From Bdellovibrio sp. ZAP7 (GTDB lineage: Bacteria; Bdellovibrionota; FAC87; UBA2466): a stretch of DNA of 64,000 nucleotides. Position numbers and translations under genes: made by a program. How positions within the stretch are numbered: position 1 is the stretch's first letter; each line of letters opens with the position of its first letter. The notes below the pieces were generated by a model that saw nothing but the letters and a program-made list of their open reading frames with translations, made no database searches and had not been told where the DNA came from. Of this stretch, positions 481 to 26,781 are shown one piece after another. The stretch lies in NCBI GenBank assembly GCA_945878405.1, contig CAMCTJ010000001.1:70304-134303 (forward strand). Direction: 5' to 3'.

Positions 481-880
481 GGTTGTTCATCTCTTTTTGA
501 TCCTGTGCTCAATTTTTCTCTCGGGATTTTTTGGAGTCTGGTCGCTTCAAAACTATACTTGGGATACGGATCCGTTACTGGTTTCTTTGGGATACTTGTC
601 CCTATCTGGAACAGGTGGCTTAGTTTTTTATCTTTTTTACTTTTTGAAGAAAACCAAAGGGTTTGGACTTCTCAGTTTGGTGTTGCTTGCTTCCGTTATT
701 CAGACCCAATCGGCCTGGGCTTGTGCTGTTTGCCAATTCGGCACTCCTGATTCTCCTCTTGTGCGAGCTATTAGAGAGGGAATTTGGGTTCTGTTATTTT
801 TGCTGGTTCCGGTTCTTGCCGGCTTTTTAGGCCTTTTTATTTTCTGGGCTAAAAGAGATAAAAAAATCTCCTCACTGTAA
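470..880 (+). CDS. Hypothetical integral membrane protein (4 TM, CxxC motif)
   Basis: 136-aa ORF overlapping the upstream gene by 11 nt. Hydrophobic segments throughout and a CAVCQFGTP motif. No family recognised. Confidence 0.4.
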   Translation: MSLKVVHLFLILCSIFLSGFFGVWSLQNYTWDTDPLLVSLGYLSLSGTGGLVFYLFYFLKKTKGFGLLSLVLLASVIQTQSAWACAVCQFGTPDSPLVRAIREGIWVLLFLLVPVLAGFLGLFIFWAKRDKKISSL

Positions 881-2008
881 CGTCACTTTAATCAGCTGGC
901 GATTCTCACTCTCATAAGATCCTTTTAACTTCGCAAGCACCAACAATGTTTTTCCATCACTGGAAAGCGCCAAGTGATGTTGATGAACGGGCCCGATGAT
1001 TTGATCCCGAAGGGGATGAAGGATAACGGGTTCACCATTCTCAAACGTGCGGGGATAAATCAGACTTAGCCCCTCTTCTTCACTCCAAACAGCAAGAGTT
1101 GTCTGACGAGGATTTAAAACCATGGGGATTCTTTGTCCAAAATTGTAAAAACGACAGCCATAAATACCGTCGTCCCATAAAAGATTCTTTTCAGGATGAT
1201 CTGTTCTTACAACGAACATGTTTTGATTTCCCGCCATAAGTTCCGGAAACTGGTAAACCTCTTTCACATTTCCAGGAATCAGAGTTGAATACTGGCCCGA
1301 TTGATAAAGCTTGCAAACAGGTAAACCGGCTAGTTCGCCTTCGATTTGGATATTAAAGTACGTCAACCGAGTGCATTGGTTTTCCTTCTTAACTCGATAG
1401 AGAAAAACGTTGGGATAGGAATGGCCTTCTCCAAGATGAAATACCTCTCCAACACTCGAGTAAAGGTTACAAATATGCGGCTTGACCCCTTTCTGACCAA
1501 AGGAATAGACCTCAATCTGTTGTTGGTTCGGCCGAACGATTGAAGAAGTGACGCTAAAAAGAGAATCTCGACCGAAAAATCGGTGCCAATAAAGATGCTT
1601 CACTCTTTTTTTAAGAGACCATTTCTGCCATCGCGGAGGATTCGTGCCGGTATCAAGTGCGATGGGAGAGCCGGCAAGAGTGACATACCGTTCGTCAGGA
1701 TCCTTCACTTTTGAGAGTGAAACAGAACTGGAACCCAACAGGAAACTTTTTCCACTCTTGAGATCCAACCGAAAGATTTTTCCTAATTGATTCCGATAAA
1801 CGATCTGATTTTTTCTTTCCCAAAAGATAAATTCATGAACGGTTCCTTTCACATCAAAGACATTAACGCCCATGTTTTGAATTTTGGTAATATCTGTCAA
1901 AGGATTGGGACCATCTCCGCCCAAACACTTAATTGAACCAATCTCAGCGGCGTTGATTTGAGCAACTAAACAACAAAAAAGACCTATAGCGAACTTCAGG
2001 TTTCTCAT
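872..2008 (-). CDS. Secreted hypothetical protein, copy 1 of the duplicated cassette (paralog of 3099..4175)
   Basis: 378-aa ORF. N-terminal signal peptide MRNLKFAIGLFCCLVAQINAAE. Its ATG overlaps the upstream regulator stop as ATGA (2005-2008). Distant similarity to the 3099..4175 product. Confidence 0.6.
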   Translation of the reverse strand: MRNLKFAIGLFCCLVAQINAAEIGSIKCLGGDGPNPLTDITKIQNMGVNVFDVKGTVHEFIFWERKNQIVYRNQLGKIFRLDLKSGKSFLLGSSSVSLSKVKDPDERYVTLAGSPIALDTGTNPPRWQKWSLKKRVKHLYWHRFFGRDSLFSVTSSIVRPNQQQIEVYSFGQKGVKPHICNLYSSVGEVFHLGEGHSYPNVFLYRVKKENQCTRLTYFNIQIEGELAGLPVCKLYQSGQYSTLIPGNVKEVYQFPELMAGNQNMFVVRTDHPEKNLLWDDGIYGCRFYNFGQRIPMVLNPRQTTLAVWSEEEGLSLIYPRTFENGEPVILHPLRDQIIGPVHQHHLALSSDGKTLLVLAKLKGSYESENRQLIKVTLQ

Positions 2009-3078
2009 ACTTCTCCCTCGCGAATCGTAACTTTAGGAACTAGGCGATACCCGCCCTCTTCAAAAGAAATTGGGTCCGAATCAAAATCTAGCTCTAACAG
2101 TATTTTTCTTAAGCAATGAATCTGATAATGCAACCTGCCATCGTCAGATGCAGGTTCATATTCTTTTTTAAAAATCTTTTTGGCTAATTGTGATTTGTCG
2201 ATCCACTCTTTTTTCGTAAAGACCTCAAATATTTTTGCGGGGATGGTTTGATAGCTAAGTTCAATCCTTTTATCGTTACAGAAAACTGTCCATCCTTGTA
2301 TCCCGTTTTCACAAAAAAGTTCTGGAGTAATCGGCGTTGTATTTAATTTCTTTTCCAGAGCTGAGATTTGGGCCTTTAATGTTTTAAAGGGGCTTTTGTC
2401 GACAATCGCTTTTGTTTCAACCAAGAGTTTTTCAGCTTGTTCTTTATCTCCACGAAGTAGGTAAAGCCCGCCCAGAATGATTTTCCCGGAAAAATAGGCA
2501 TACCAATCTAGAATGGGGTCCACCCCTTCGAAAAACTTTGTTATTTTCCTTTCAGCTAGTTCGAGTTTACCCTCGTCTCGTAGCATTTTTATGCGCCACA
2601 ATTCCAAATTAAGTTGTGTGGGTCGATCTTTTGAATCCACGATAGAGTCGATTATTCTTCGACAGGCATCTACGCTATCCCCTTCGCAATCGTAGCAGTA
2701 GGCGAGCAACATTTTGGCCTTCGTGTGCAGGTACCCTGAGTCTGGGTTGGCAATAACCTTTGTTAGAATCTCTTTCGCATAAGTCAGATTTCTTTTACTG
2801 CCTAGAATCGAGACTTCGGCTAGTTGATAATAAAGCTCATCCGTTTGCCATTTTAATGAAAGGGTCTCGATCTGGTTGAGGTAAAAGTTGAGTTCTCGTT
2901 CTTTTCCTAACTCTAATAGACAGCGAATAAAGTAACTTAAATAAAGCGCATGTTCTGGCTGAGGCGAAAAAGGAAGACGATCAAAGAACCGACGGAAGAT
3001 TGCATAAGCGTCATGGAGCTTCCATGAAAAGAATAACTCCTTCGCTTTGTCTAGGTCCTTTGTATGCTTCTCAAGCAT
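2005..3078 (-). CDS. Transcriptional regulator, N-terminal TPR-like helical domain plus C-terminal OmpR/PhoB-type winged helix (copy 1)
   Basis: 357 aa. The C-terminus RLHYQIHCLRKILLELD...GGYRLVP matches the trans_reg_C pattern (V.VHI..LRKKL...GYRL). The N-terminal roughly 250 aa is helical-repeat-like. No receiver domain. Paralog of 4172..5251. Confidence 0.6.
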   Translation of the reverse strand: MLEKHTKDLDKAKELFFSWKLHDAYAIFRRFFDRLPFSPQPEHALYLSYFIRCLLELGKERELNFYLNQIETLSLKWQTDELYYQLAEVSILGSKRNLTYAKEILTKVIANPDSGYLHTKAKMLLAYCYDCEGDSVDACRRIIDSIVDSKDRPTQLNLELWRIKMLRDEGKLELAERKITKFFEGVDPILDWYAYFSGKIILGGLYLLRGDKEQAEKLLVETKAIVDKSPFKTLKAQISALEKKLNTTPITPELFCENGIQGWTVFCNDKRIELSYQTIPAKIFEVFTKKEWIDKSQLAKKIFKKEYEPASDDGRLHYQIHCLRKILLELDFDSDPISFEEGGYRLVPKVTIREGEV

Positions 3079-3098
3079 CTTGTCGTTAACTGTGTTTT

Positions 3099-4175
3099 CT
3101 ATCTGTTTAATCCCTTTAAACTAACCGTGTGGAGCGCGCGGCCTCCCGACTTATCTCTTCGCTCTTTGGTGCTAATAAAAAGTCGTTCTGCTTCTGAATC
3201 GACCCAAATTTGATTTCCTTCGAGAAATCCTCTATCGACTGAGAGTTCCAGGGTGAAATACCGACCGGTCAGCAGCGAATAAACACCAACTCCTTTTTGT
3301 CGATTAATATTAATTACAAGTGGACTTTTATGGTTGGGAATATAGGAAAGCCCTGCAGGTAAATTTGCGACTAAAAAGGCGCCTGGCTTACCAAAATACA
3401 TATTGGTTGTTTCATGATCCGTTAAAACTGCTAACTCTTGCCCGCCAAATGCCCAGTTAACCGAAGTTACATTCCCTTTTACTAATTCGGGCTCTTTAGA
3501 TTGAACTTCAATCTGGCACTGACCATTTCGCATTCTGAGGTCTAGTGTATAAAAGTTTAACTCGGCACCTCCCTCAATACTCTTTTCACTGTAGAGCAAT
3601 AGGTGCGAGGCTAGGTGGCCAGCACCGAACTTGAGATTCTTGGGATTGTCGTTAGGAACAAAATCACAAGTTTTATGTCGAATCTGATTCTTTTCTTGGT
3701 CGTAAATAAAATAGGATATCCGCCAGGCTTCACTATTAAGCCGTTCTAATTTCTTAAGTAGGTACAGTTCATTTTGATCCCAGTAAAGAAATCGAACAGA
3801 ACCTGGTAAACGGATCTCCTGCCCCTTATTTTTACCCACCACTCTGAAAATATTCTTTAAGTCGGAAGAGAGAACCATTTTTCCATCGGCACCAGAAATG
3901 GGGAAGAGTTCATTAATGAATCCTCCAAATTGTTGCTCCTCGCTGTTATTAAAATCGTAAACACGCAGCTTTAATCTTGAATCAACATACGCCAGTTTGT
4001 TCCTTCCCTCTAAAACTGAATAGGAGGTAATCATTCCCTGGAGAGGGATAGTGACTTTTCTAGGTGCGGGAATTCGAGAGAAAGGAGTAGGTCCGTCACT
4101 CCCAATGATTTCAAAAGCAATTAAACCTTTAGATAAACCTAATAAAATAAACGCCCAGAAAAAAATAGATCTCAT
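3099..4175 (-). CDS. Secreted hypothetical protein, copy 2 of the duplicated cassette
   Basis: The ORF track starts at 4214. The internal Met at 4175 gives the signal peptide MRSIFFWAFILLGLSKGLIA and an ATGA overlap (4172-4175) with the upstream regulator stop. Confidence 0.55.
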   Translation of the reverse strand: MRSIFFWAFILLGLSKGLIAFEIIGSDGPTPFSRIPAPRKVTIPLQGMITSYSVLEGRNKLAYVDSRLKLRVYDFNNSEEQQFGGFINELFPISGADGKMVLSSDLKNIFRVVGKNKGQEIRLPGSVRFLYWDQNELYLLKKLERLNSEAWRISYFIYDQEKNQIRHKTCDFVPNDNPKNLKFGAGHLASHLLLYSEKSIEGGAELNFYTLDLRMRNGQCQIEVQSKEPELVKGNVTSVNWAFGGQELAVLTDHETTNMYFGKPGAFLVANLPAGLSYIPNHKSPLVININRQKGVGVYSLLTGRYFTLELSVDRGFLEGNQIWVDSEAERLFISTKERRDKSGGRALHTVSLKGLNR

Positions 4176-5251
4176 GAAATATCCTCCCCCACTTCGGACA
4201 CTTCGGGAACCCATCGATACCCAAATGATTCCTTGGTTACAAGTTTTTGCGAGAATCCCAATTTGAGAAGGTGTTTTTTGAGAAGATGCAGCTGACCATA
4301 AATTAACTTATCGTCTTTCTTAGACCGGTAATTTCTGCGATATAATCGCTGTATGATTTCCTGCTTCGGAAGAACCTTTTCGCGAATGAGGGAAAGAAGC
4401 AATTTCTGCCAAGGCTTATCCCCGTTGAGCTGTAAAATTCTATCTTCATATTTCAGAACGCTCGAGGTTCTGGTGCGCTCCCAAATTAAAGGAACAGAAT
4501 GATTATGTCCCTTGATTTGGTCCGCTAAGTGATCGATCTGCCTCTTGATAGTTCTTAGTGGATATCGGTCACAATAAGCTCTTACTTCCTTGATAATAGA
4601 AAGCAATCTATCAAATCGCTCTTGGCGCAGGTACACGCCCCCCAAAATTACTTGGCACGATAGATAAGCATGCCAATGAAAATGAGCTTTGACAGTAGCC
4701 AGGAAAGTTCCCAGTGCTCGCTCTGCATCTTCAATCTGACCCGAATCTCTCAATATTTTGGCTTTCCACACGGAAACCAAATCGACTAGATAGGGATCTA
4801 ATCCATCCAAATTGATGGATGAGATGATCGAGTCACAAACCTTCCAATCTCTCGAAATGATGTCGTGACAGGTGGCTAACCCCATCTTAGTTCGTGCCAA
4901 CAGATTGACATCCTGACTCTTAAATAAAATTCTTTCAAAGGTCTCTCGAGCCAATTCAAGATCGCCCGATTCCTGAGTTAAATAAGAAAGCCCCACTTGA
5001 TAATCTAGTTCGGGAGTTCGTTTTTTTTCTGGAACAGTCACGAGCTTTTGTCGGTAACTTTTTAAATCTTCATCTTTGCCCAACTCATAGAGAGTCCGTA
5101 TGAACATTGAAAAGAATTCTACAAGTTCACAACTTTCCTCAATGCTCATGGAATCAAATGTTTGTTTGAAGAGCGGATACGCTCCTTCCAGTCTGAGCTC
5201 ATAATATAAGGAGCGAGCTTTCATTAAATGGGAGGGGATTTGGTAATTCAT
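4172..5251 (-). CDS. Transcriptional regulator, TPR-like N-terminal domain plus C-terminal OmpR-type winged helix (copy 2)
   Basis: C-terminus LIYGQLHLLKKHLLKLG...FGYRWVP (trans_reg_C-like). Aligns along its length with 2005..3078 (AYPLFKQTFD vs AYAIFRRFFD; ILGGVYL vs ILGGLYL). Start chosen at MNYQ (5251) by paralog alignment; the ORF track start at 5323 is the alternative. Confidence 0.55.
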   Translation of the reverse strand: MNYQIPSHLMKARSLYYELRLEGAYPLFKQTFDSMSIEESCELVEFFSMFIRTLYELGKDEDLKSYRQKLVTVPEKKRTPELDYQVGLSYLTQESGDLELARETFERILFKSQDVNLLARTKMGLATCHDIISRDWKVCDSIISSINLDGLDPYLVDLVSVWKAKILRDSGQIEDAERALGTFLATVKAHFHWHAYLSCQVILGGVYLRQERFDRLLSIIKEVRAYCDRYPLRTIKRQIDHLADQIKGHNHSVPLIWERTRTSSVLKYEDRILQLNGDKPWQKLLLSLIREKVLPKQEIIQRLYRRNYRSKKDDKLIYGQLHLLKKHLLKLGFSQKLVTKESFGYRWVPEVSEVGEDIS

Positions 5252-5416
5252 TTTGGGGAAAAGTACCACATTCACAGGGTAGGTGTAAAAAACGTTTGGA
5301 GGGGTGGCGCGTCGCACCAACAACCCGCAAAGGGATTGACTCAGTCAGCCTAGATTGAGCTTCGCAGCAAGTGCGATCATATTGAGGTAGTTTCCTCATT
5401 CTCTCACTCTGCACTC

Positions 5417-6052
5417 ATGAACATACTTTCACACCGAGGACTCTGGAAAGAGCCTCACAACCAAAACCAACTGTCGTCTTTTGCGACGAGTCAGGTCGAG
5501 GGATTCGGAACTGAAACCGATCTGCGTTCTTACTCCGGAGAACTGTATCTTTCTCATGATCCGATTGGTTCTCCCTCCGGGAAGCTCAAATTTGAAGATT
5601 TATTAACCCTCTGGGTCAAGCGCCCTGAATTGCCTCTTTTTCTCAATATCAAAGAAGATGGCCTTCTTCCGTTCCTAAAACCGTATCAACCCTTATTAGA
5701 GAAGCTGAGAGTGGTTTTTTTCGACATGAGTGTTCCCCAGCTCGTTCAGTTTTCAAAAGTTTTTCCCAGAGAAATGTTAGCTACTCGTTTTTCCGAATAT
5801 GAACGAGAGCCATCAGCTCAAGATCTTTGCAACTGGCTTTGGGTAGATAGCTTTAATTCAGATCCAGAACTCGATGTCTTAAGGCCGTTTGTGAGTGAAA
5901 AGAAAATGTCGCTCGCGATTGTTTCGCCCGATCTTCACGGTCGCGATCCGAAACCTATTTGGAGAAGGCTCAGAACTGAAAGAGCATTCCCCAACGACTC
6001 CCTCTATCTCTGTACAGACGCACCCCACGAATTTTCAAAGGAATCAGTATGA
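5417..6052 (+). CDS. Glycerophosphodiester phosphodiesterase (GDPD)-like protein
   Basis: N-terminal ILSHRG...EGFGTETDLR...LSHDP reproduces the GDPD catalytic HRG / E-x-D / HD spacing. Stop overlaps the next gene start (ATGA at 6049-6052). Confidence 0.55.
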   Translation: MNILSHRGLWKEPHNQNQLSSFATSQVEGFGTETDLRSYSGELYLSHDPIGSPSGKLKFEDLLTLWVKRPELPLFLNIKEDGLLPFLKPYQPLLEKLRVVFFDMSVPQLVQFSKVFPREMLATRFSEYEREPSAQDLCNWLWVDSFNSDPELDVLRPFVSEKKMSLAIVSPDLHGRDPKPIWRRLRTERAFPNDSLYLCTDAPHEFSKESV

Positions 6053-7440
6053 TCAAAGCCGTTATTTTTGACTTAGATGGCGTTCTTGTTGATGCGGTCA
6101 CTTTGCACTATCAAGCATTTAGTCGAGCCATAAACTTGTTTGGCTTTGAAGTTCCTCCGGCAATTCATGGTTTTAACTATAATGGGTTACCCACGACGGT
6201 AAAACTGGAGATGCTCTCTCAGTTTTCCGCTCTTCCGAGAGGGTTACATGCCTTCATCAATGAAATGAAACAGGTTTACACTCAGGAACTCTTGAACCAA
6301 AAATTAAAGCCCTCCCTAATCCAAATCAATTTACTAAAAACACTTCGCGATCGAGGAATGAAGTTGGCCGTAGCTTCGAATTGCACCCGAAGCACCGTCG
6401 ACCTGGTTTTAGAAAAACTTCAGATCCGACCATTTTTTGATGTCATTCTCTCCAAAGACGATGTCAGCAAATCTAAACCTGATCCTGAAATGTATTTGAA
6501 ATGCTTTAAACAACTCGGAATAAATGGAGATGAAGCTCTCATTTTGGAGGATTCTCGACCCGGTGTTATAGCGGCACAGAAGGCTACTTCAAACGTGTCC
6601 ATTGTAAAAAGTCCCACCGAAGTTAATCTCTCTTATTTAAATTCTCAAATAGCGAAATTTAGAGACCAGACCTATTTAGATTCGCGAACAGTTGAAATTG
6701 TAATTCCGATGGCAGGTTTGGGCTCTCGCTTTTCGGATGTGGGATATGTGGATCCCAAGCCCCTCATTAAAGTAAATGGCAAACCCATGATCCAATGGGT
6801 CATCGAGAATCTGAGTTCGCAGAATTATCGAACCCACTTCAACTTCATTGTTAATCGAACTCATTTGGAAAACTTTGATTTAGAACGGCGCCTTACCGAA
6901 CTTGCACCGGGCTGTCAGATTATTTCTGTGCCTCAGAAGACGGAAGGAGCGGCCTGTACGGTACTTTTGGCACTCGATCGAATTGCTCTGGACAGACCAC
7001 TCATCATTGCCAATTCGGATCAGTTCGTCGAAAGCTCTTTCGAGGAATTTCTGAAGACGGGTTTAGAATCAGATAGAGACGGATTGATCATGACGTTCCC
7101 AGCAAAAGAGACCAAGTGGAGTTATGCCCGTATAGATGAGCAAGGGTTAGTGGTTGAAGTGGCTGAGAAAAAACCCATTAGTTCTCATGCGACAGTCGGA
7201 ATTTACTATTTTAAAACGGGAGAACTTTTCCAAAGAGCGAGTTATTCAATGATTCGCTCGAACATGAGAACTAACAATGAGTTTTACGTGTGCCCTGTCT
7301 ATAATGAACTTATTCAGGCGGGTGGCAAAGTAAGCATTTTTCCCATTCCCGCAGAAGCCATGCATGGCCTGGGGACCCCGGAAGATCTAGACATTTTTCT
7401 CCAGCGTTCAGTTAAACACTCTCAGCCTCTGGCTGCGTAA
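6049..7440 (+). CDS. Bifunctional protein: N-terminal HAD-superfamily (beta-phosphoglucomutase-like) phosphatase fused to a C-terminal sugar-/alcohol-phosphate nucleotidyltransferase (LicC/MobA-like fold)
   Basis: N-terminus MIKAVIFDLDGVLVDA (HAD motif I), with later ...SKSKPDPEMY... and ...ILEDS... motifs. The C-terminal half begins EIVIPMAGLGSRF (G-x-G-x-R nucleotidyltransferase signature) and ends ...HGLGTPEDLDIF, as in LicC/IspD-type NTP transferases. Confidence 0.65.
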   Translation: MIKAVIFDLDGVLVDAVTLHYQAFSRAINLFGFEVPPAIHGFNYNGLPTTVKLEMLSQFSALPRGLHAFINEMKQVYTQELLNQKLKPSLIQINLLKTLRDRGMKLAVASNCTRSTVDLVLEKLQIRPFFDVILSKDDVSKSKPDPEMYLKCFKQLGINGDEALILEDSRPGVIAAQKATSNVSIVKSPTEVNLSYLNSQIAKFRDQTYLDSRTVEIVIPMAGLGSRFSDVGYVDPKPLIKVNGKPMIQWVIENLSSQNYRTHFNFIVNRTHLENFDLERRLTELAPGCQIISVPQKTEGAACTVLLALDRIALDRPLIIANSDQFVESSFEEFLKTGLESDRDGLIMTFPAKETKWSYARIDEQGLVVEVAEKKPISSHATVGIYYFKTGELFQRASYSMIRSNMRTNNEFYVCPVYNELIQAGGKVSIFPIPAEAMHGLGTPEDLDIFLQRSVKHSQPLAA

Positions 7441-8143
7441 CTAACTCGGCAAGCGCATTAGCTATCTCGGCTTTGGTCCTTAATTTCTGAACCTGTCCCT
7501 TTTTGGTAACTATCCAGAGCGGGTGACTTCCCTTTTTTATTTGGGGAAGAAAATTCACACAGACCGCATGGTGTTTTTTTCTCGCTAAAAGGTCGTGTGC
7601 AAATTCTAAAAGTTCCTTTCGATTTTTTCGCTCCCATTCCAACTTGAAGCCAATTCTTTTTATTCGGGGGTAGCTCTGGCCCACTCGATCAATGATTTTC
7701 GGGGTCGGAACTAATTCAATTTTCCATTTTTTGTTTTGTGAGCTGACTTTACCCGAGATTACTTTCTGCGGTTTAAAATCCAAAACAGCAGCGGCAAAAA
7801 TTGCGTAATCCGGTTTGTAGGCGCGACAGAGCTTCAAAGTGGCATCAGCCATTTCATCTGCTGTTTCCACCTCTACCAGCTTTTTGAATGAAAGTTTTGA
7901 AAAGGGTTGTTGAGTCGGACCTACCACTGCAAAAAGCTCAATTCCTTTTTTGGTAAGTGCTTGGGATAAGCAAAAACCTAATTCTCCCGTCGAGTAATTG
8001 CTCAGGTATCTGACGCTATCAAGATACGCTCGAGTCGGCCCTGCCGTGAGAACTACGCGGATCGGGCGTTTTTTCTTAGGTTTTTGTTTCAAAACTTTAC
8101 CCTTTCTCGTCAAAAAGATGACTCTGTCCGTTGGAATAAACAA
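7412..8143 (-). CDS. coaB: Phosphopantothenate--cysteine ligase (CoaB domain of the Dfp family), stand-alone
   Basis: VVLTAGPTRAYLDSVRYLSNYSTGELGFCLSQA matches the CoaB ITAGPT...D.VR.I.N.SSGK.G core. No CoaC flavoprotein half is present. Confidence 0.7.
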   Translation of the reverse strand: MFIPTDRVIFLTRKGKVLKQKPKKKRPIRVVLTAGPTRAYLDSVRYLSNYSTGELGFCLSQALTKKGIELFAVVGPTQQPFSKLSFKKLVEVETADEMADATLKLCRAYKPDYAIFAAAVLDFKPQKVISGKVSSQNKKWKIELVPTPKIIDRVGQSYPRIKRIGFKLEWERKNRKELLEFAHDLLARKKHHAVCVNFLPQIKKGSHPLWIVTKKGQVQKLRTKAEIANALAELVTQPEAESV

Positions 8144-18416: not shown

Positions 18417-18493
18417 GGGCGGTTAGCTCAGCTGGATAGAGCACATGGCTTCGAACCATGGGGTCAGGAGTTCGAATCTCTTACCGCCCACCA
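18417..18493 (+). tRNA. tRNA-Arg (anticodon TCG)
   Basis: Cloverleaf read by hand: acceptor GGGCGGT/ACCGCCC, D arm GCTC-AGCTGGATA-GAGC, anticodon stem CATGG/CCATG around loop CTTCGAA (anticodon UCG), T arm AGGAG-TTCGAAT-CTCTT, discriminator A, encoded CCA. Confidence 0.85.
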
Positions 18494-26541: not shown

Positions 26542-26633
26542 TGGCGGAGAGGAGAGGATTCGAACCTCCGATACAGTGTTACCCGTATAACGGTTTAGCA
26601 AACCGCCGCCTTCGACCACTCGGCCACCTCTCC
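26542..26633 (-). tRNA. tRNA-Ser (anticodon GCT)
   Basis: Reverse complement folds as GGAGAGG-TG-GCCGAGTGGTCGAAGGC-G-GCGGT-TTGCTAA-ACCGT, a long variable arm, then GGAGG-TTCGAAT-CCTCT-CCTCTCC-G-CCA. Anticodon GCU. Type II (long variable arm). Confidence 0.85.
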
Positions 26634-26691: not shown

Positions 26692-26781
26692 TGGCGGAGA
26701 GGGGGGGATTCGAACCCCCGATACCCTTACGGGTATAACGGTTTTCAAGACCGCCGCTTTCAACCACTCAGCCACCTCTCC
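26692..26781 (-). tRNA. tRNA-Ser (anticodon TGA)
   Basis: Reverse complement gives the same acceptor, D and T arms as the neighbouring tRNA-Ser. The anticodon loop is CTTGAAA (anticodon UGA). Long variable arm. Encoded CCA. Confidence 0.85.

Follow-up and report, generated by a model that had tools for sequence, protein, structure and literature searches.

A duplicated pairing of TPR–winged-helix regulator and tagged exported protein in Bdellovibrio, a candidate signalling cassette

Near one end of a 64,000-nt stretch of Bdellovibrio sp. ZAP7 DNA, which we call the window, lie four minus-strand open reading frames that make up two tandem copies of one two-gene module. Read in the direction of transcription they are regB (4172..5251), secB (3099..4175), regA (2005..3078) and secA (872..2008). 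The reg genes encode cytoplasmic regulators of 359 (regB) and 357 (regA) aa, and the sec genes their exported partners of 358 (secB) and 378 (secA) aa. Within each module the stop codon of the regulator and the start codon of the partner overlap as ATGA, at 4172-4175 and 2005-2008, exactly as an earlier sequence-only reading by a model had described and as we could read directly. Both partners have a GGAGG-like Shine–Dalgarno sequence inside the 3' end of the preceding regulator gene: GGAGG at 4183-4187 in regB for secB, and GAGGGAG at 2013-2019 in regA for secA. The four frames of the earlier reading stand, but its outer limits of 872-5323 most likely have to be drawn in. The mechanical frame of regB reaches back to a TTG at 5323 (383 aa); the ATG at 5251 is the most likely start because its methionine lines up with residue M1 in regA and in every member of the family. 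For secB the start is the ATG at 4175, not 4214.

Only 20 bp separate the secB stop from the regA start (3079..3098, minus strand), with neither a promoter-like site nor a terminator, so the four genes, judged from their sequence, are probably one operon. A candidate promoter, read by eye, lies ahead of regB on the minus strand at 5262..5289: TTTACA (5284-5289), 16 nt, TGT-GGTACT (-10 at 5262-5267). It went undetected in a consensus scan and is conserved in two related loci, L001 and L002 (as GATACT). With 10 nt between its end and the regB ATG, the mRNA would be nearly leaderless. Directly 3' of the secA stop, a weak minus-strand hairpin (GAGAT/ATCTC) with a T-run at 851..871, also read in the sequence, may be a terminator; it falls under the G+C criterion of our terminator scan. 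The window contains no further copy of the cassette, its neighbourhood yielded neither an Opp-type importer nor a dedicated protease, and no operator for the regulators could be defined.

An alignment of the two regulators covers their full length (30% identity over 345 aa, E=1e-44), as the sequence-only reading had it. Each is a TPR superhelix of about 250 aa followed by a C-terminal winged helix-turn-helix (wHTH) of the OmpR/PhoB/ToxR type. In regA, the TPR domain occupies residues 1-246 (2341-3078, minus strand) and the winged helix residues 253-352 (2023-2322); alignment to those residues puts the regB winged helix at approximately 4187..4489. The N-terminal domain matches TPR_19, TPR_12 and TPR_MalT in Pfam, kinesin-light-chain TPR in the PDB and TPR structures in Foldseek. 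Among the Foldseek matches are Rap, NprR and MalT domain III (TMq 0.54); APC6 and further TPR proteins of a generic kind score at least as well as Rap and NprR.

At the C terminus, the Pfam Trans_reg_C profile (PF00486), proposed earlier as a check, gives a divided answer: against a cut-off of 26.2 bits the window regulators reach 13.9 and 14.0 (E about 0.05), whereas 14 of 30 family members match at E<=0.01 (the best at 1.4e-6) and the distant relatives tested pass without exception (48 of 48). When a profile of only the C-terminal domain was compared with the PDB, its matches were exclusively DNA-binding domains of the OmpR/PhoB/ToxR type (ToxR at 6e-4, BaeR, SaeR and AdeR), and hhalign to a sequence of the PhoB DNA-binding domain gave E=1.8e-5. 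The AF2 model of regA (pLDDT 88, about 90 in the wHTH) shows the order beta-sheet/α1/α2/α3/beta-hairpin, and the columns of highest conservation in the family include the recognition-helix motif DD..IYY.IH.LRK.L and the G-Y-R hairpin. Pfam searches found no receiver domain in the regulators, and no BTAD or ATPase match in the window proteins, the family or the distant relatives. Neither regulator has a transmembrane segment (maximum KD19 about 1.0), and 77 of 78 regulators lack one at a threshold of KD19>=1.6. Profiles, relatives and model thus agree with the receiver-less layout originally suggested, and on sequence and modelling together we class the regulators as soluble, cytoplasmic one-component transcription factors.

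The paralogy of the two partners is weak but genuine (21% identity, E=4e-6 pairwise; secB orthologues match secA by phmmer at 1e-8 to 1e-17), in line with the distant relationship first proposed for them. Partners evolve faster than the regulators, at a mean identity of 24% versus 36%. Their signal peptides, called like all others here by heuristics rather than SignalP, are MRNLKFAIGLFCCLVAQINA in secA (1949..2008, minus strand; KD19 1.67), with A-x-A ahead of a predicted cut before AE..., and MRSIFFWAFILLGLSKGLIA in secB (4116..4175, minus strand; KD19 1.91), cut before FE.... A beta-propeller had been guessed for the partner. The AF2 model (pTM 0.81) bears this out with an all-beta, 7-blade structure whose matches are beta-propellers, periplasmic YncE included. 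Four cysteines are conserved in secA, C28, C180, C232 and C285, of which secB lacks the C28/C285 pair. Across the partners, cysteines are lost pairwise (C28+C285 in four sequences, C180+C232 in one), implying two disulfides and with them an oxidising compartment. We take the partner, as predicted from these data, to be a Sec-exported beta-propeller with putative disulfide bonds.

The feature we consider most informative was absent from the sequence-only reading: a short tag, G-[GS]-D-G-P-x-P-[LF], at the mature N terminus just past the signal peptide. In secA, it reads GGDGPNPL (residues 30-37; 1898..1921, minus strand); across the partner family, no other stretch of eight residues is conserved as strongly (conservation 0.74 versus a mean of 0.36). 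In secB, it is GSDGPTPF (residues 25-32; 4080..4103, minus strand). These paralogue-specific variants are fixed, each in five of five orthologues, while the B-type bodies drift to 31% identity. The background used to judge how specific the tag is was the surroundings of these genes, about 650 kb in all, rather than whole genomes. In 321 kb of it, read in six frames, there are 27 occurrences of the strict pattern, every one in the gene that follows a regulator, and a relaxed pattern is found in 33 of 69 distant partners against 4 true background matches in 332 kb. Across the superfamily a related Gly/Asp...P-x-P-hydrophobic/aromatic tag recurs (GGDGRPWPW, for example), and it is kept where the partner bodies are unrelated. 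In the AF2 model of the partner the tag is a low-confidence tail (pLDDT 40-66). It adjoins Cys28 in most propellers, apparently disulfide-bonded to Cys285, which suggests that it acts tethered to the body in the periplasm and not as a released peptide.

The architecture had been called unusual. The layout is there, but it is not peculiar to this locus: 75 cluster representatives match it at E<=1e-30 and 136 at E<=1e-10, and it was confirmed in 233 metagenomic loci. The organism labels we saw were all either unspecific or those of Bdellovibrionota, bacteria of the predatory type. These regulators share only 13-21% identity with regA, and typical members are already auto-annotated 'winged helix-turn-helix domain-containing protein'; on the profile and alignment evidence, the TPR-wHTH architecture defines an uncharacterised superfamily. 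The survey for the same pair that had been recommended turned up a partner directly downstream in 24 of 24 core modules (18 genome loci; a 19th, L009, ends at the regulator and is outside the count), nearly all with the 4-nt overlap. Among eight distant relatives viewed singly, five have a coupled signal-peptide frame, two lie on contigs that end too early and one has none. In the metagenomic loci, 69 of the 73 that could be evaluated have a downstream frame, 33 of these overlapping the regulator, 61 looking signal-peptide-bearing and 56 with P-x-P-hydrophobic near the N terminus. Relatives without a coupled partner are few (L025, L066, L097 and L103); of 100 related loci looked at, about 90 have the pairing. 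The partner body, by contrast, is interchangeable: a propeller here, an unrelated domain of ~160-200 aa in most relatives, with no hhalign match between the two. The distances among regulators go along with those among their partners (r=0.89; Mantel 0/2000), and both genes of the pair were duplicated together, as had been supposed. No third gene is conserved beside the pair among the clades compared; the flanks vary by clade (caa3 oxidase, M14 and trypsin-like peptidases, HAD-nucleotidyltransferase and others).

Of known systems, the RRNPP(A) family of Bacillota (Rap-Phr, NprR-NprX, PlcR-PapR, PrgX) is similar in that the gene for a cytoplasmic TPR protein adjoins or overlaps one for a Sec-exported protein. 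There, a 250-500-aa TPR receptor, often DNA-binding, has an exported neighbour carrying its cognate short peptide, and the binding of short peptides by such TPR regulators is established (PMC10075063). Four of the five signature criteria of that paper apply to our cassettes, and paralogous cassettes in both cases have distinct peptides or tags. In contrast, the partners here are 358-378 aa (131-235 aa in relatives) rather than 10-100 aa, what is conserved lies at the mature N terminus and not at the C terminus, the wHTH is C-terminal and OmpR-type rather than an N-terminal XRE-type HTH, and the hosts are diderm Bdellovibrionota, for which release and re-import of a peptide is only proposed. 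We found no sequence homology to RRNPP(A) proteins beyond generic TPR.

ToxR/ToxS and VtrA/VtrC also join a receiver-less OmpR/ToxR-type wHTH to a partially overlapping downstream gene for an exported, fast-evolving partner (for VtrA/VtrC, see 10.1101/2022.04.08.487670). The regulators there are membrane proteins of bitopic topology that carry the wHTH at the N terminus and form a periplasmic dimer with the partner, unlike the soluble TPR proteins here with their C-terminal wHTH. MalT and the LAL regulators (STAND ATPase, TPR-like sensor, C-terminal LuxR HTH) likewise place a helical-repeat sensor N-terminal to the DNA-binding domain, and TPR_MalT matches occur in 5 of 30 core members and 28 of 49 in the distant-relative alignment; our regulators differ in having no STAND ATPase, an OmpR-type rather than LuxR-type domain and one third the size. 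SARP/AfsR/EmbR and HilA-type regulators combine a receiver-less OmpR-type wHTH with TPR-like helical repeats in the reverse order, the wHTH first and then BTAD (and NB-ARC/TPR), and to our knowledge have no coupled exported partner. In type III secretion circuits (IpgC-MxiE, SicA-InvF), transcription depends on whether a secreted protein has left the cytoplasm, and a TPR protein binds a short proline-containing N-terminal motif of that substrate. The TPR chaperone and AraC-type activator are separate proteins there and export is via the T3SS, whereas in our cassette one protein contains both the TPR and the DNA-binding domain, and its partner starts with a Sec signal peptide.

A leading regulator gene overlapped by the next one is an arrangement typical of signalling partners (ToxRS, VtrAC, Rap-Phr, sigma/anti-sigma). 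The reading we favour, tentatively and at something short of an even chance, is that regulator and tagged protein form a self-contained signalling cassette, the exported protein being the regulator's cognate signalling partner and not mere cargo. The TPR domain, a peptide-binding fold, would probably recognise the tag. It might bind the tag on precursor not yet exported, so that transcription would report export capacity, or a tag fragment might be freed by periplasmic proteolysis and re-imported, following RRNPP-like logic. Whether the winged helix sits on DNA or is free would then depend on tag occupancy; the cassette would thereby feed back on its own promoter, and perhaps on other genes, and cassettes with distinct tags, GGDGPNPL and GSDGPTPF, could act as insulated channels. 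The original suggestion of a sensor co-expressing its ligand or effector is compatible with the data. Counting against a TPR domain that reads the tag, regulator and mature partner occupy different compartments.

That separation is equally a point for a plainer scheme, a serious possibility even if we doubt it on balance, in which the regulator responds to some unrelated ligand or protein in the cytoplasm and drives its own operon. The exported protein would be a regulated product, such as a periplasmic or prey-directed binding protein, and the tag would have an extracytoplasmic role of its own (sorting, envelope docking or a plug tethered by C28-C285). The tag's position beside a disulfide-forming cysteine, the lack of an importer or transducer in the operon and the generic likeness of the TPR domain to peptide receptors all fit, and shared ancestry alone predicts that adjacent genes co-diverge. 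Left unexplained are the survival of the regulator-first overlap and the tag through replacement of the whole body, the near-absence of the tag from unlinked frames (about 650 kb) and the distinct, fixed variants of the paralogous cassettes. An unlikely variant makes the partner a periplasmic sensor or adaptor and puts a membrane protein from an unlinked gene between it and the regulator: this transducer would relay the partner's state, and the TPR domain would bind the transducer's cytoplasmic tail instead of the tag. Docking onto protein tails is common among TPR domains, and strict pairing and co-divergence would be reconciled with topological separation, but the pair has no conserved third gene and its flanks differ between clades.

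Could the regulator not be a transcription factor at all, its winged helix decayed and the protein a TPR chaperone or scaffold for export of the partner? The sub-threshold PF00486 scores of the window proteins point that way, but the conserved recognition helix and G-Y-R hairpin, the confidently predicted fold and a profile that matches solely DNA-binding domains make it quite improbable. A membrane-tethered co-component of the ToxR/ToxS or VtrA/VtrC type, forming a periplasmic heterodimer with the overlapping downstream product, is prompted by that overlap and by ToxR as the best PDB match of the wHTH, and is refuted by regulator topology (no transmembrane segment or periplasmic domain, and a C-terminal wHTH), the partner moreover being a propeller and not lipocalin-like.

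The favoured cassette, then, looks like an undescribed signalling unit. What is constant across its superfamily is the coupling of regulator to partner and a short tag, not the body of the partner.

Four minus-strand open reading frames fill the region 872–5323, and they are two copies of one module: a regulator gene followed by the gene for an exported partner. The order of transcription is regB (4172–5251), secB (3099–4175), regA (2005–3078) and secA (872–2008). Within each pair the stop and start codons share an ATGA, at 4175..4172 and 2008..2005, which we read directly from the DNA, and before each overlap, inside the upstream gene, lies a GGAGG-like Shine–Dalgarno sequence (4183–4187 and 2013–2019). 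The sequence-only reading had described this four-gene, two-module arrangement, and its open reading frames, its overlaps and the paralogy of the copies all hold. Two of the gene starts had to be moved. The secB gene begins at the overlap ATG at 4175 (358 aa), not at 4214. For regB the likeliest start is ATG 5251 (359 aa), whose methionine lines up with Met1 in regA and in all other family members, and the TTG at 5323 probably lies too far out. Between secB and regA there are just 20 bp (3079–3098, minus strand), and since a consensus scan found no promoter- or terminator-like site in that spacer, the four genes probably form a single operon. Across the region, the scan returned three promoter-like sites, fewer than the 7.5 expected by chance. 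By eye, we picked out a candidate promoter, TTTACA-16-TGTGGTACT (5262–5289, minus strand); it stops 10 nt short of the regB ATG, and the closest relatives keep it. A transcript from it would, we infer, be nearly leaderless, which fits the absence of a Shine–Dalgarno sequence before regB; none is obvious in the 20-bp spacer before regA either. The G+C level is flat, about 0.38–0.45 throughout the locus and its surroundings, and a tblastn search of the whole window found no further copies of the module.

Upstream of the operon lies a divergent gene (5417–6052, plus strand) whose 211-aa product matches nothing in Pfam or NCBIfam. A non-coding block, ATGATCGCACTTGCTGCGAAGCTCAATCTAGGC (5348–5380), is almost invariant across the window and the related loci L001–L004, the flanking proteins being only 52–66% identical in the more distant L003 and L004. 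The block sits some 35–70 bp upstream of the divergent gene and is probably its promoter or operator, which we preferred to the idea that it serves the cassette. Nor did GTTAAC survive as a general operator: it is in the window's spacer (3085), reads GTTAAT in L001 and is missing from L002. One clade (L006, L008, L009, L011–L013, L018) carries a palindrome, TGTTAACA, 117–134 bp upstream of the regulator start, with TGTTGAAA 10 bp beyond it in several of those loci. Its distance to the regulator start is steadier than its distance to the divergent gene, and it is a candidate operator for that clade; L019, where the regulator start is uncertain, has a further match at −62. The palindrome is absent upstream of the window operon. 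Further out, a second plus-strand gene (6049–7440) overlaps the divergent gene by 4 bp and encodes a 463-aa protein in which, unusually, a beta-phosphoglucomutase-like HAD phosphatase is fused to a sugar-1-phosphate nucleotidyltransferase. Beyond it, on the minus strand (7412–8143), is a stand-alone CoaB-like phosphopantothenate–cysteine ligase matching only the C-terminal half of CoaBC, its mechanically assigned TTG start overlapping the end of the preceding gene. Rfam has no match in or beside the cassette; at gathering threshold its only matches in the whole window are tRNA genes at 18417–18490 (plus), 26545–26633 (minus) and 26695–26781 (minus).

What kind of proteins are the regulators? 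The regA (357 aa) and regB products are clear paralogues, 30% identical over 345 residues (E = 1e-44). Taken singly, their Pfam matches are faint: TPR_19 is sub-threshold at 18.6 bits, and neither protein reaches the 26.2-bit gathering score of Trans_reg_C (PF00486; regA 13.9, regB 14.0, E~0.05). The claim that they end in an OmpR-type winged helix is therefore borderline on the two proteins alone, and it is the family that decides in its favor. Trans_reg_C matches appear in 14 of 30 aligned core members, the close relatives, at E ≤ 0.01 (best 1.4e-6), and in all 48 second-tier proteins tested, more distant relatives in which the domain follows canonical TPRs (best 2.6e-15). A profile of the C-terminal 105 residues matched only OmpR/PhoB/ToxR-type DNA-binding domains in the PDB, with ToxR first (6e-4), then BaeR, SaeR, AdeR, CarR and PhoB-family chains; hhalign against a hand-entered PhoB DNA-binding-domain sequence gave E = 1.8e-5. 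An AlphaFold2 model of regA (pLDDT 88) folds residues 1–246 into a TPR superhelix of 13 helices. After it come three strands (253–275), helices at 279–289 and 295–303, a long third helix (309–328) and a C-terminal hairpin (337–352), at pLDDT ~90 and in the order of the OmpR family. For the N-terminal domain, Foldseek matched APC6, Rap, NprR, NlpI and MalT domain III at a generic TPR level, so that Pfam, PDB and fold comparison all back the TPR assignment. Arg52 and Glu56, by the concave groove of this domain, are conserved. Pfam has no Response_reg match even at E ≤ 10, and an all-helical superhelix stands where a receiver would. Because no hydrophobic segment is in sight (the maximum 19-residue Kyte–Doolittle window is 1.01 in regA and 0.92 in regB, and just 1 of 78 family members reaches 1.6), both regulators are predicted to be soluble and cytoplasmic.

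The partners are another matter. Their N-termini have a basic n-region, a hydrophobic core and an A-x-A-type site, which makes Sec export likely. Pfam, even at E ≤ 10, and NCBIfam match neither secA nor secB, WD40 and propeller repeats included, and NCBIfam matches none of the four cassette proteins. The two are weak paralogues (21% identity, E = 4e-6), their kinship firmer through orthologues (phmmer, 1e-8 to 1e-17); with the regulators aligning as they do, the homology of both pairs stands as first proposed. A suggestion that the partner might be a beta-propeller has also fared well. The AlphaFold2 model of secA, built on a shallower alignment, has pLDDT 84.9 and pTM 0.81; it is all-beta and made of about 30 strands, and Foldseek gave 511 PDB matches at E ≤ 1e-3, propellers throughout among the matches listed, including WDR5, Cdh1, G-beta and the periplasmic YncE of E. 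coli (TM 0.4–0.57). By this model the secA product is a generic propeller, probably of about seven blades, a number taken from the Foldseek matches rather than from coordinates. Four conserved cysteines (C28, C180, C232, C285) vanish in pairs: C28 and C285 are jointly absent from four sequences of the secB type, C180 and C232 from L006. This pattern implies two disulfides, C28–C285 and C180–C232, and hence folding in an oxidising compartment. A profile search with a mixed alignment returned only orthologues of secA and secB, so the partner family could be extended only through genomic context.

Genomic context proved generous. A scan of GTDB species-representative genomes yielded 19 loci, all MAGs, labeled Bdellovibrionota, Bdellovibrionales, Pseudobdellovibrionaceae, Bdellovibrionaceae or (Delta)proteobacteria. 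A partner homologue directly follows the regulator in 18 of 18 loci with downstream DNA (the sequence of L009 stops at the regulator and is outside this count), almost always with the 4-nt overlap, and six loci have the tandem double module. Pairwise identities of regulators and partners rise and fall together (r = 0.89; Mantel, 0 of 2000 permutations), the partners evolving faster (mean identity 24% versus 36%). Regulators and partners give matching nearest neighbors, so the two genes were duplicated together, as the sequence-only reading had proposed. The cassette is convergent with a caa3-type oxidase cluster: subunit IV (TIGR02229) lies at 160–480 on the plus strand, and a plus-strand membrane ORF of 136 aa (470–880) shares 9 bp with the 3′ end of secA. 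The arrangement is found again in 9–10 genome loci (the window, L001–L003, L007, L012–L014, L017, L018), and the conserved chromosomal position points to vertical inheritance rather than mobility.

Beyond these genomes, the family profile, run with HMMER against 1.84 billion cluster representatives, picked up 136 proteins at E ≤ 1e-10. The 75 at E ≤ 1e-30, nearly all ~355 aa, make up the core family. A second tier, at 1e-20 to 1e-10, consists of proteins of 360–440 aa matched from the TPR region to the C-terminus; NCBI lists one of them as a winged helix-turn-helix domain-containing protein. A metagenome scan confirmed a further 233 loci. With 136 relatives, Trans_reg_C in 48 of 48 and 233 metagenomic loci, the TPR-first, winged-helix-last layout is real, fairly common and uncharacterised; within this superfamily the window proteins belong to a divergent branch. 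Taxonomic labels are mostly missing for the distant relatives, and restriction to Bdellovibrionota is drawn from the 19 genome loci and the one NCBI name. Literature searches found no relevant description of the architecture or the pairing in Bdellovibrio.

Distant relatives keep a partner of a different kind. Of eight second-tier regulators examined singly, five are followed by a tightly coupled ORF whose product has a signal peptide, is small (132–158 aa where complete) and is not a propeller; two contigs run out inside the next start codon or just past it, and one regulator has no partner. A downstream ORF is present in 69 of 73 evaluable metagenomic loci, its start −25 to +76 nt from the regulator stop; 33 of these ORFs overlap the regulator gene and 61 have a signal-peptide-like N-terminus. 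Complete metagenomic partners concentrate at 160–200 aa, and complete called downstream ORFs in relatives span 60–235 aa, nearly all 134–235. The small partners match nothing in Pfam or the PDB, and hhalign finds no homology with the propellers beyond one short tag. In L025, L066, L097 and L103 (possibly L100), more than 400 bp of sequence holds no ORF directly downstream; such regulators either are orphans or have their partners at another place in the genome. Longer distant partners occur in L036, L091 and L029 (226–235 aa or cut at the contig end), where Ala/Ser/Pro-rich low-complexity linkers separate the signal peptide from a GPFP-type tag, so that its distance from the mature N-terminus varies. 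Peptidases turn up nearby in some genomes. In L005, L006, L008, L009, L011–L013, L018 and L019 the divergent neighbors ~200–280 bp upstream are a secreted carboxypeptidase (Peptidase_M14, Pfam 4.7e-70) and a serine protease of the trypsin-like type (8.6e-10); L010, L014 and L017 share the second of these genes. In L020 the gene after the small partner is a Peptidase_S8, and L024 has S41 and S49 peptidases on its flanks. Such enzymes could process the tag, but we did not use them as evidence: the M14 and trypsin-like genes are syntenic in one clade only, the window lacks them, and these genomes are protease-rich.

The tag was the unexpected find. The sequence-only reading had the anatomy right; it drew the distribution too narrowly and missed the tag. 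Soon after the signal peptide, propeller and small partners alike carry a related motif: GGDGPNPL (secA) and GSDGPTPF (secB) in the window, GGDGGTPF and GGDGPKPM in other core members, and GGGDGPYPL, GGDFPFPL, GGDGRPWPW and GSDGAPWPF in small partners, where it usually runs on as G-x-E-x-PFPW-x-x-IQG-x-W. Peptides spanning the tag region read xCLGGDGPNPLTD and IIGSDGPTPFSR. A strict pattern occurs 27 times in the six-frame translation of 321 kb, every time in the gene after the regulator; a relaxed one hits 33 of 69 distant partners against six matches elsewhere in 332 kb, two of the six being one partner mis-assigned by the ORF heuristic. Among all 8-residue windows of core partners, none is as well conserved as the tag (0.74 versus a mean of 0.36). 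The two paralogous cassettes hold different variants, each fixed in five of five orthologues, and secB-type bodies drift to 31% identity while theirs stays fixed; variation is almost entirely clade-bound. All this is evidence for a specific tag under selection. In the secA model it lies in a low-confidence N-terminal tail (pLDDT 40–66), the predicted behavior of a linear motif.

How does this compare with what is known? OmpR-family response regulators begin with a receiver bearing a phospho-acceptor Asp; regA and regB have a TPR domain instead. SARP- and HilA-type regulators use the same two domain types in reverse order. In AfsR, DnrI and EmbR the winged helix is N-terminal and BTAD follows; here it is C-terminal in the AlphaFold2 model, and BTAD is not among the Pfam matches listed for core or distant members, so the proposed reversal of the SARP layout stands. 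MalT shares the order of sensor then DNA-binding domain, with a STAND ATPase and a LuxR-type HTH. RRNPP systems are recognized by five criteria, including a 10–100 aa propeptide, Sec export, a 250–500 aa TPR receptor and gene adjacency (PMC10075063). Receptor size (357 and 359 aa), TPR content and direct adjacency agree, whereas the window partners, at 358 and 378 aa, are far from small propeptides; the DNA-binding domain, its position and the host's envelope type differ too. VtrA/VtrC-type co-components have the same class of winged helix and an overlapping exported partner (10.1101/2022.04.08.487670), whereas ToxR and VtrA are bitopic, with an N-terminal winged helix, one transmembrane helix and a periplasmic domain. 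Our locus belongs to none of the RRNPP, VtrA/VtrC, SARP/HilA or MalT systems. Its parts are known, their arrangement is new, and the conserved link to a partner has not been described before.

Across the superfamily, then, a cytoplasmic protein made of TPRs and a winged helix co-evolves with an exported protein that carries the tag and is translationally coupled to it. Placing the regulator gene first, with the next gene overlapping it, is a hallmark of signaling partners rather than of regulator and cargo, TPRs are a fold specialized in binding short proline-rich motifs, and a short proline-rich motif is the sole element to survive replacement of the partner body. For these reasons we favor, tentatively, a self-contained cassette in which the TPR domain of the regulator would read the N-terminal tag of its own partner. 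It might do so on the un-exported precursor, giving an export-coupled transcriptional switch of which type III secretion has an analogue in its TPR chaperone/activator circuits; or a tag fragment might be released in the periplasm, re-imported and then read, as in RRNPP. The compartment barrier between regulator and exported partner, and the Cys28–Cys285 tether adjoining the tag, fit something plainer, a periplasmic role for the tag in an operon the regulator merely drives, and this too is possible, if somewhat doubtful. A relay through an unlinked membrane protein seems to us improbable. A ToxR/VtrA-type mechanism, whatever the likeness in winged helix and gene overlap, is excluded because the regulators lack a transmembrane segment. 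Returning to the TPR domain as reader of the tag, the fuller proposal of a Bdellovibrionota-specific peptide- or precursor-sensing system, with an OmpR-type regulator reading its own partner's tag before export or after re-import, is rather unlikely as a whole. Under it, several paralogous cassettes per genome would each form an insulated channel, perhaps with a link to the predatory life cycle.

Regulation in the Bdellovibrionota is poorly understood, including how a predator senses prey entry or the state of its own envelope and secretion, and for few transcription factors there is the signal known. The cassette's anatomy and conservation stand on firm ground and should come as a surprise to specialists; the mechanism is inferred, though open to test, and its units are convenient: an 8-residue peptide, a TPR domain of ~250 aa and a winged helix. 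The locus leads to a superfamily of one-component regulators, as yet uncharacterised, hundreds of metagenomic loci strong and almost always tied to an exported, tag-bearing partner. If the TPR domain does not read the tag, the tag still marks an unrecognized class of exported proteins. If re-import is true, this would be the first RRNPP-like receptor/pro-peptide system in a diderm, with another DNA-binding domain and protein-sized carriers. And if the TPR domain reads the tag by either route, receptor/pro-peptide or secretion-coupled transcription logic would reach a new phylum in a new architecture, with a set of naturally orthogonal regulator/tag pairs.
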